Positions 12,001 to 15,000 of a stretch of 62,699 nucleotides of DNA are shown here, in pieces. The position numbers are program-made. The stretch lies in sequence record KJ603229. The stretch is one strand, 5' to 3'. The DNA comes from Shigella phage POCJ13. The number at the start of each line of letters is the position of its first letter. Positions within the stretch are counted from its first letter, which is position 1.

Positions 12001-15000
12001 GTGATGGACCGTATGACCATGAACGGTGGTCGTTGGGTGAATTTTAACTGGGAGAGCTGGCGATCAAACGTTGGGCGTCAGGGTATGTGAGAATTTTTGA
12101 CGAGGTAAATTTTCGATGGAAACCGTATTGCATGCACTGAAAGCGATGGGTAAAGCCAATTCTGTTGAACTGGCGGCGCGGCTTGATATCAGCCGTGAAG
12201 AAGTTCTCAACGAACTGTGGGAACTCAAAAAAAATGGTGTTGTTGATAAAACGGGTCACACCTGGTTTCTGGCTGTCGAAGGTGAATCCGGGGTAACCGA
12301 AGGGCAGGCACTACAATCTGAAGCGCCGGATGTGGTAACCGAAGAGGTCGCTCCAAAAGTTAGCGCTGACATGATGATTGAGTTTATCGCTCAGGAGGGG
12401 GCTAAAACCTGTGAAGAAATAGCGGGTAAGTTCGGAGTTACCACTCGTAAGGTTGCTTCCACTTTGGCGGTAGTAACAGCAACGGGGCGCCTGGTGCGCG
12501 TGTCTATCAAGGGAAAATTCCGTTATAAAGTGCCTGACGTCGAAAACGGCGATTTGAGCGCGTCATCATCGCAGGATGAGAATATCACACACGAAGCAGA
12601 AAACAGCGCGTCAGGCGACGAACTGAATCGCTTTCCGTTGATGTCAGAGGGCACGGCAAAGGCCTGTACAGATGAGTTTATCCGGGATGTTCCGTCGTTC
12701 ACCGAAAAATATGCTGGTGCAGTGACCCTTCCACCTCTACGGGCCGCCAGTCGTGAACTTCGTCGCGCCAAAAAACAGGTCCAGAAGTGGGAGCGTGTCT
12801 GTGCTGCACTACGTGAGCTGAATAAACACCGGGAACTTGTCATGCAGATTACCGATTCATCCAGCAGTATTGCATCGGAAAAGTGATAACTGGAGAGCTT
12901 ATGGCAAAAGTATTTACACCCGAACAGCGGGAAGAACTGAAGGCACGTATTGTGGAGCTCGTGCGCCTGAATGGTCGGGGAACGTTCAGGCAACTGGCTA
13001 CTGAAACCGGAGTCAGCAAGACAGCTGTCAGACGTTTGTCCAGAGAACTGGTTGTCAGTGGCGCTATATTCGACTCAGGTTATGGTTTATTCCCGTCTGA
13101 TCAGGCGCGTAAGGACTGGCAAAATGCCCGCAAAAAACTCTCGAGAGCAAAGGCAAAGAAACCGGTTGTTATTGACCCTGGTCTTATCCGGGCATTACCT
13201 GATGGGGAAATCCGGCGCTACGACAGACGCTACAACATAATTTGTCGCGAGTGCCGTAACAGCGAAACGATGCAGCGTGTGCTGGCATTCTGGCGGGGGA
13301 GTGCAGAGGGATTGATGTTCTCCCCGTCGTGAATGACTGGGGCTTACGTGTTCAGAAAAGTGATTCATATAGAGGCTGAATCTGATCTTTTTTGTTCACG
13401 TCTGGCTGCCACCATTGCAGGCAGAGTGAAGGCGTAGACTAAAAACATTTCGGTAAAACTCAGGATCTGGCTTGCCTTAATTGGTGTGAAAACTTCATCT
13501 GTATGAACTGCTTTATTGGCATCAATTCGTACAATATGAGCCCATTCCTTCATCTGTTCAGTGATCAGCCCTTTTTTGTAAATCATCTGAATACGTTGCG
13601 ACAGCGATTCTTTTCCTGCTTCATCGCCGAGCAGTTTTTTCGTGGAGATATCGAGGACTCTGCGACAAAGAATTACCACTGTGTCGTACCGCCTCCTCTG
13701 TAAATCCTCTTTTGCCTCAACAAAAGTACGGTCTGCAACCGGGGGCGTATATTCTGGTGCGGTAATTTTTTTGACCGCAGGATAGATCTTGCGGAAACGG
13801 TACTGGCTATTTCCTGAAATCAGAATATCGAGGTCTTTTTTCTGGCTTTCCGCCATGGGGCCGTGATAGTGGTCTGATGGGATTTCAACAATAGCAACAC
13901 CTCCTCGATGACAACTTCTGCATACAAAAGCGACGTTAAAAAGAGGTGTTTTTTCAATTTGTTTTTCGGCAAATGCCTCAATAACAGCTCGCTCTTTTAA
14001 ACAGTGTGGGCATGTAATGTCAAAGGAGACTAAACTCATGGATATTCCTCTCGAAATTAAAGAAATTAACGAAATCATTGAGGTTACTGATCGCCCCGAG
14101 TTTACCCTCATGCGTCGTTATGAAACAGGAACCGACGAACAAAAATACATCATGGTTGCAGCATTGGCTGTGATGGCGATAGAAAGGGAGCGGAGGGAAA
14201 AGGACGTAATGGTTATTCCGGCGAGAAATGATTCACCGGATTTGAGATGGCAGGATCCGGAGTGGGATGTGGCAATCCGGTGATTGATATTTCTCTGGGG
14301 TAAAGCGCCGCCAGAATGACGGCGCGGTAGTGGAGAGTTAAACGAAGCGGATCTGGAGTTTTTTCCCTGTAGCACGGGCGAATTTTTTCAGTGTGGCAAA
14401 TGATGGGCCGCTTATACCTGATGCAAGATTGCTTTCCATTCTGGTGATCGCAGTCGCTTTTGTTCCCATACGTTCAGCAACTTCAGCCTGGGTTAAGCCT
14501 GCTTCTTTTCGTGCTGCCAGCATTTCATCAAGTAGTGCGAATTCGTCGGCGATGGCGTCGTATTCTGCTTTGAAAGCCGGATCCTCCATCCATTTGGCTG
14601 CCATTTCGTCGTGTGTCATGGTAGGTGTAATGCGTTTACCAGTCATGCTTAACCTCCTTCATTCTGGCTTCAGCTTTTTTGCGTTCGGCTGGCGGTGTTT
14701 TCTGCGTTTTCTTAATGAAACTATGCAGCATAATGATGCGTTTCCCTGTCAGAGTGCAGTAAAAAACACGTGCAATCCCATCGTTGCCTTTAATTCTGAG
14801 TTCGAAAAGCCCATCACCAAAGGCGCTGGTATGAGGTTCTCCGAGATTGCTGCCGTATACCTTCATACGTTCAATGAGATGTTTGTATCGGACACGCATA
14901 CTCAATGGAAGCTGATCGACTTCCAGCCGGACCTCTTCACTGTAGTATTCGATAGTGTAGTTCATAGGTATCAACATAACAAATTTGTTATATGTATTCA

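Follow-up and report, generated by a model that had tools for sequence, protein, structure and literature searches.

Zinc-ribbon fusions were already listed among the architectures of the DUF4145 domain by Anantharaman 2013 (PMC3710099), and PD-T7-4 was described as a single-gene defence system, with defence shown, by Vassallo et al. in 2022 (PMC9519451). It was renamed RAZR (ring-activated zinc-finger RNase; source strain Escherichia coli UMB1727), with mechanism and structure published in February 2026 by Zhang et al. in Nature (PMC13017515; PDB 9y9c). According to that study, RAZR is an abortive-infection system that needs no partner and is non-toxic alone. Its zinc-finger domain, which was superposed on RPB9 by its authors, binds protein and not DNA, namely the ~170 Å rings of a T7-type portal or of the putative recombinase Gp77, around which RAZR polymerises as a 24-mer; the activated enzyme cleaves single-stranded RNA non-specifically, so that translation stops (PMC13017515). 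Swaps of the zinc-finger domain also swap phage specificity, exchange of R146 and H154 for alanine abolishes defence, the linker (residues 66–79) packs on the HEPN domain and is functionally essential, and activation needs a higher-order oligomer interface comprising V21 and the dimer–dimer salt bridges D179/D180–R184 (PMC13017515). Here, we analysed a gene at 13365..14039 (minus strand) of Shigella phage POCJ13 (sequence record KJ603229; the whole stretch of 62,699 nucleotides is called the window), which encodes a RAZR-like zinc-ribbon plus DUF4145/HEPN protein and which, judged by its sequence and by analogy to RAZR, probably belongs to a known kind of anti-phage defence genes carried by prophages. 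The first-pass annotation of the window had stated that no characterised function was known for this architecture, a statement overtaken by the two studies from 2022 and 2026; the architecture is already characterised, and what the locus adds is a new variant, not a categorically new system.

The open reading frame (ORF) consists of 224 codons plus stop, with its ATG at 14039 and, as read from the sequence, a Shine-Dalgarno-like GAGAGGA 6 nt upstream (14046..14052, minus strand). Though the frame can be extended to 14111, every homologue begins at the methionine at 14039, so that the 224-aa product was taken as the real one; the ORF had been placed correctly before, the earlier length of 225 aa having counted the stop. 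The product is identical to AHZ95186.1 / UniProt A0A088CBI8 and 99.6% identical to gp19 of Shigella phage 75/02 Stx (Sepvirinae; NC_029120), to which the window as a whole essentially corresponds. In RefSeq, gp19 is annotated as 'DNA binding protein', a label also carried by phrog_1305, which matches the window protein with E 1e-62, and the E. coli copies are named 'DUF4145 domain-containing protein'. The DNA-binding label is probably misleading and found no support in any of our domain searches. A search of NCBIfam with the protein gave no match, BFVD gave two significant matches, both unnamed, and the part of the DefensePredictor tables that was searched held no match to the sequence. The GC content of the gene is 43–45%, compared to 51–54% in the replication genes.

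Based on conservation, structure prediction and alignment with RAZR, the protein could be divided into three parts. The zinc-ribbon domain (residues 1–52; 13884..14039, minus strand) carries the cysteines C10, C13, C40 and C43 in the two knuckles C10-P-H-C13 and C40-R-S-C43, corresponding to CxxC-x26-CxxC and not to the x27 spacing given originally. All four cysteines were invariant in an alignment of 31 homologues and invariant or at least 90% conserved in 110 representatives, which were clustered at 50% identity and share only 25–51% identity. An AlphaFold2 model built from the 31 homologues was confident (pLDDT 89, pTM 0.77) and displayed an N-terminal beta-ribbon with both CxxC knuckles, a helix-strand insert and a helical C-terminal domain. 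In the zinc ribbon (domain pLDDT 88–96), strands were predicted at residues 4–6, 20–27, 33–40 and 46–52; their order matches that in a RAZR zinc-finger model, for which a RAZR homologue was modelled poorly (pLDDT 57.6; shallow alignment of 66–97% identical sequences) and used for strand order only. By analogy, this domain is presumed to be the sensor. The family profile also matched RPB9 zinc ribbons weakly.

The zinc ribbon is followed by an insert specific to the family, with a helix at residues 61–68 and a strand at 81–86 in alignment and model, and by a proline linker (both within 13743..13883, minus strand). The remainder, residues 100–224 (13368..13742, minus strand), forms the DUF4145/HEPN helical domain, which the first-pass annotation had recognised tentatively and which the profile search confirmed: Pfam DUF4145 (PF13643) matched residues 118–196 with 35.6 bits at a gathering cutoff of 23.1. 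Structural matches to the modelled domain, which has a four-helix HEPN core, were led by 2hsb, ahead of the HEPN-MNT toxins 5yep, 7ae6 and 6m6w; phmmer of the single sequence against PDB sequences gave no match at E<=10. The predicted RNase active-site motif R171-I-D-A-N175-K-A-V-H179 (RIDANKAVH; 13503..13529, minus strand) is defined by conservation and by the alignment with RAZR. Within it, R171, N175 and H179 are invariant in the 31 homologues and invariant or at least 90% conserved in the 110 representatives. The R171-x7-H179 spacing lies outside the canonical HEPN Rx4-6H, as had been noticed before, but the catalytic pair R146/H154 of RAZR has the identical spacing. Further invariant positions in the 31 sequences are P87, P95 and P99 of the linker and a C-terminal motif FTE-FL-Y-FTLP-M, all of them at least 90% conserved in the larger set.

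For comparison with RAZR, the 219-aa RAZR-Ec was rebuilt from two partial database proteins; its residues V21, R146, H154, D179, D180 and R184 fit the numbering of the published protein, and its length equals that of the chain in PDB 9y9c. BLASTP of the window protein against this sequence revealed 27% identity over 109 aa, covering linker and HEPN core, with E 1e-5 and with R, N and H aligned. At the family level, hhalign of the 110 sequences against the RAZR family aligned 180 columns across both domains with a probability of 97.1% (E 5.9e-11). In this deep alignment, the four cysteines stand in register with C16/C19/C49/C52 of RAZR, P87/P95/P99 align with the invariant linker prolines P66/P74/P79, followed at the sequence level by a common [FY]-x-E-A-[KR] motif, and R171, N175 and H179 align with R146, N150 and H154. 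An invariant proline beyond the last conserved helix, P207, corresponds to P185 of RAZR. In line with this, PADLOC assigned PD-T7-4 as top family to 60 of the 110 representatives (best E 1.8e-11). Both proteins have about 220 aa, are associated with mobile elements and share an N-terminal Cys4 zinc ribbon (CPxC...CxxC), a three-proline linker and a C-terminal DUF4145 HEPN domain with R-x3-N-x3-H. This remote homology over the full length to a proven defence protein fits the earlier proposal of a moron-type defence candidate. In our reading of these alignments, the window family is a sister family within a zinc-ribbon–DUF4145 superfamily, with an ancestor and an architecture in common with RAZR, and not an orthologue of RAZR.

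The family is large and mostly phage-borne. A hmmsearch of 1.84 billion cluster representatives resulted in 3326 relatives at E<=1e-3, 1413 at <=1e-10 and 210 at <=1e-30, and since these thousands of relatives are nearly all of full length, the gene is far beyond a chance ORF. A relative is encoded on 105 viral contigs of IMG/VR. The family, widespread in Enterobacterales, extends to Burkholderia, Lysobacterales, Sphingomonas and Zoogloeaceae; in E. coli the gene is rare and patchy, being found in 37 of 5426 complete genomes, always on the chromosome. In 97 of 101 loci the gene runs counter to the majority of the long ORFs around it, and it is therefore embedded antisense within a lytic operon, early or late. 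Regarding their position, these loci fall into three classes. In the majority (class A, 66 of 101), the gene separates the replication from the nin genes of a lambdoid prophage. This is also its position in the window, as the first-pass annotation had correctly stated: here the gene stands antisense and is flanked by O-like, DnaC-like, DUF1627 and DUF977 (Ren-like) genes and, at its other end, by Ant/NinB, with a toxin–antitoxin (TA) pair and a low-GC block nearby. The outer flanks differed in the class A examples inspected in detail, Yersinia having DUF6475 in place of DUF977 and no TA pair. Another 24 loci (class B) lie between the lysis genes and a gene for one of three types of terminase small subunit. 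The remaining 11 (class C) occupy other positions, among them a slot between cos and the portal gene in the P2-like phage Cartapus, whose protein belongs to the window family (hhalign 99.9%, E 1e-32). The slot is known from P2 as a validated hotspot of defence genes, the classical old/tin site (PMC9519451), and the presence of a family member there also fits a defence candidate. Apart from its position, the protein of Escherichia phage Cartapus (NC_070909, locus 162-860) has its catalytic arginine replaced by lysine (VKDDGNDGAH). A mobile, patchy, low-GC antisense cassette is the usual signature of a moron expressed in the lysogen.

Two further members are worth recording. Klebsiella phage 2b LV-2017 (KY271395.1, 21311..21949, minus strand) encodes a 212-aa homologue with 45% identity between its spanin and terminase small-subunit genes, which is unannotated in the GenBank record. 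In Yersinia enterocolitica prophages that harbor the zinc-ribbon–DUF4145 gene, a gene with a BstA_C domain adjoins the repressor (locus 10490-11410). BstA_C is a known prophage abortive-infection family, so that these prophages carry at least two candidate exclusion systems.

By analogy to RAZR, we consider it rather probable, though far from settled, that the gene encodes an anti-phage abortive-infection RNase with a zinc-ribbon sensor. In such a system, the protein would be made in the lysogen and be inert alone, until a superinfecting phage supplies a protein that the N-terminal Cys4 zinc ribbon recognises. Binding would rearrange HEPN dimers or oligomers in such a way that R171, N175 and H179 of neighbouring subunits form an active RNase site, which would then cut single-stranded cellular and phage RNA; translation would stop, and the infection would be aborted as the cell dies or arrests. 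At induction, rightward early transcription would probably silence the antisense gene and in this way spare the prophage from triggering its own system. It is plausible that antisense read-through from the early operon, possibly together with the product of a small divergent ORF described below, switches the system off at this stage. That activation proceeds specifically by ring-templated polymerisation, as in RAZR, seems doubtful and was rated much lower, because the dimer–dimer contacts of RAZR are not conserved: D179, D180 and R184 align with V201, Y202 and L206 in the window protein, so that ring-templated higher-order assembly should not be assumed. The oligomerisation residue V21 of RAZR is likewise not conserved, and the window protein may use a different interface.

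The absence of these salt-bridge residues is one of several points that weigh against the RAZR-like defence reading as a whole. In sequence, the zinc ribbon is unrelated to that of RAZR beyond the ligands, and the window protein carries an insert of ~25 residues relative to RAZR. As plain differences, the spacer is x26 compared to x29 in RAZR, there is an extra helix-strand unit at residues 53–86, and the C-terminal helix of the family, unlike that of RAZR, displays the invariant motif of its own mentioned above. With shallower input the homology is weak: the 31-sequence alignment reached the RAZR family at a probability of 68% in hhalign, single-sequence and shallow-profile comparisons were weak as well, and the 31-sequence profile reached the RAZR of PDB 9y9c at E 0.078, though with R, N and H aligned. 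The PADLOC hidden Markov model (HMM) for PD-T7-4 (PDLC04109) matched the window protein with 16.1 bits (E 1.4e-3) at model positions 63–158 of 211 (45%), compared to 314–339 bits over the full length for true RAZRs. Moreover, the phage itself encodes a P22-type portal (31207..33351, plus strand) and a RecT-family recombinase (2453..3238, minus strand). Because these are the two protein classes that activate RAZR, the question of self-triggering is raised if the sensor is RAZR-like. Finally, a scan of the minus strand for a sigma-70 consensus promoter in 14040-14420, i.e., the ~380 nt upstream of the gene, gave none. The sole sigma-70-like site upstream on this strand lies at 15122..15149, ahead of the TA pair, and read-through from there is possible. 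Since the upstream regions that were aligned code for the small ORF in the homologues, conservation cannot reveal a promoter; as the Yersinia loci inspected lack this TA pair, the family presumably has a weak or non-canonical promoter of its own inside the small ORF.

This small ORF of 81 aa (14038..14283, plus strand; phrog_8371, function unknown), passed over by the first note, separates the RNase gene from the TA pair and is arranged head-to-head with the RNase gene in such a way that both ATGs share the palindrome CATG at 14037-14040. It revealed no match in Pfam, NCBIfam or PDB. All class A loci (66 of 101) harbor a homologue of it in the same register with an invariant R-P-E-x2-L, and the pairing spans from E. 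coli to Photorhabdus and to a betaproteobacterial (Zoogloeaceae) metagenome-assembled genome, where the RNase is only ~35% identical. In the class B and C loci there is no small ORF. It may be a partner or regulator of the RNase, or merely a conserved border gene of the slot. To this extent, the earlier description of the gene as stand-alone is questionable: 35 loci lack the small ORF, and 66 have the head-to-head pair.

The TA pair, ~300 bp away and on the same strand as the RNase gene, consists of an HTH_3 antitoxin-like gene (14338..14646, minus strand), recognised by Pfam, and a toxin gene of the Gp49 family (PF05973, RelE/HigB-like; 14636..~14965, minus strand), which overlaps it by 11 nt. 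The toxin start chosen in RefSeq (M50 of a long ORF, giving 87 aa) truncates the Pfam match, and from the sequence an upstream methionine (about 109–113 aa) looks more likely to be the true start. Other E. coli prophages carry an allele of the RNase gene with 70% identity, next to a toxin gene of a different family, PF05015 HigB.

Three other explanations were weighed against the RNase acting alone in defence, and two of them start from these neighbours. The small protein might be the antitoxin, inhibitor or regulator of a two-gene module, which would serve addiction or stability, or would be a defence system switched off by the early transcript. The exact CATG arrangement is kept in 66 of 101 loci even though the RNases there are 35–50% identical and the outer flanks differ, the small ORF directly abuts each E. 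coli RNase copy common to both genome searches, and, being co-directional with the early operon, it is expected to be expressed on induction. However, the RNase can exist alone, as the small ORF is lacking in the 24 loci of the lysis/terS slot and 11 others, and the small ORF also occurs without RNase, in phage phiSTEC1589-Stx1c and by count in E. coli genomes (48 with the small ORF vs 37 with the RNase gene), which is the pattern expected of a border gene. Type II TA pairs are not typically divergent, no family could be recognised for the small protein, and RAZR itself is partner-free and non-toxic alone (PMC13017515). We regard such a module as improbable. We give equally little weight to its most specific form, in which the head-to-head pair would be a self-safe abortive-infection cassette, with only the RNase made in the lysogen and induction providing both antisense transcription and a small-protein antidote. 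If it were true, a prophage with its own portal and RecT could carry a ring-sensing suicide RNase, prophage-borne abortive-infection systems would have a new way to spare their own phage, and the family would stand as a second branch of the RAZR superfamily, distinct in mechanism and with triggers of its own.

Even less probable, in our view, is that the RNase gene would belong to the HigB/HigA-like operon as its third gene, and that the promoter-like site at 15149..15122 would drive all three as a TA or defence system. The three genes lie on one strand, this site upstream of the toxin gene is the sole one on the minus strand, with none directly upstream of the RNase gene, and the RNase–TA arrangement is kept in several E. 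coli prophages. But the RNase gene is split from the TA pair by a 300-bp gap with an opposite-strand ORF, the 70%-identical E. coli allele stands beside the other toxin family (PF05015 HigB vs PF05973 Gp49 here), and no adjacent TA pair was found in the Yersinia loci inspected in detail or in Klebsiella phage 2b, where the gene is in the lysis/terS slot. On the same absence from these Yersinia loci, which share the slot of the window, the neighbouring TA pair, pointed out by the first-pass annotation, was rejected as a partner. As to a role in the phage's own life cycle, the protein might be a nucleic-acid-binding regulator or an RNase remodelling transcripts in lysogeny or induction, an explanation to which the 'DNA binding protein' labels of phrog_1305 and gp19, the frequency of nucleic-acid binding among zinc ribbons and the location in a regulatory region of the genome would lend themselves. 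The label lacks domain support, though, the sole recognised domain being a HEPN nuclease with an invariant catalytic triad, and the equivalent RAZR domain binds protein, not DNA (PMC13017515). The gene is furthermore rare and patchy among near-identical Shiga-toxin (Stx) phages, in one of which it is swapped for other cargo, and the family occupies three unrelated genomic slots, a behaviour of accessory morons and not of core regulation. We hold a life-cycle role to be quite unlikely, somewhat less so than the three-gene operon, and retain the abortive-infection RNase with a zinc-ribbon sensor as the preferred reading.

Comparison with other described systems placed the window protein beside several HEPN proteins that differ from it in build. 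The DUF4145 (PF13643) proteins BxaP (BREX-associated, PMC10799925) and Ishtar1 (anti-plasmid, bioRxiv 10.64898/2026.07.06.735840) share the HEPN subfamily and the catalytic motif, but in BxaP and Ishtar DUF4145 is N-terminal and followed by other C-terminal domains, and restriction-modification-linked fusions combine DUF4145 with restriction-endonuclease and helicase modules (PMC3710099). In none of these is the order of zinc ribbon, linker and HEPN or the proline linker found. The HEPN-MNT type II/VII TA toxins (5yep, 7ae6, 6m6w) are close structural matches to the C-terminal domain, but unlike the window protein they have the canonical Rx4-6H and no zinc ribbon, and no MNT nucleotidyltransferase gene adjoins the RNase gene, its neighbours being DUF977, the 81-aa ORF, HTH_3 and Gp49-like genes. 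With HepS of Gifsy-1 (PDB 9oik), a prophage HEPN sensor of phage structural proteins, there is homology of the HEPN fold only; its sensor is unrelated and it lacks a zinc ribbon. The prophage abortive-infection sensor BstA revealed no homology to the window protein and no zinc ribbon. DS-38 (HEP2, WP_001313577.1; DefensePredictor), an E. coli protein whose role in defence is validated, goes under the description 'HEPN plus zinc finger' and was compared with PD-T7-4 by its authors. It was considered as a member of the same family and rejected, as it has 366 aa, an N-terminal HEPN, a C-terminal multi-zinc-finger array and an unrelated sequence.

If the protein is active, a large phage-borne sister branch of 3326 clusters at 50% identity would be added to the RAZR family, a branch that probably escapes current defence finders, given a score of only 16 bits with the PD-T7-4 model. 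Stx prophages would then carry a superinfection-exclusion RNase, which bears on Stx-phage ecology and on the choice of therapeutic phages against Shiga-toxin-producing E. coli and Shigella. The differing zinc ribbon provides a natural test of whether the zinc-finger domain sets trigger specificity as in RAZR, the missing oligomerisation residues one of whether ring-templated assembly is general, and the antisense embedding with the head-to-head small ORF makes avoidance of self-triggering at induction directly testable.

Beyond the TA pair, the window revealed an island of very low GC content (14900..16750; 27–37% vs ~50% around). It harbors two ORFs (15143..15619 and 15607..16302) with one N-terminal hydrophobic segment each, i.e., single transmembrane segments, which belong to phrogs of unknown function, and a gene for a DUF805 membrane protein (16322..16711) on the opposite strand. 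In appearance, this island is an independent moron cargo, the second in the region.

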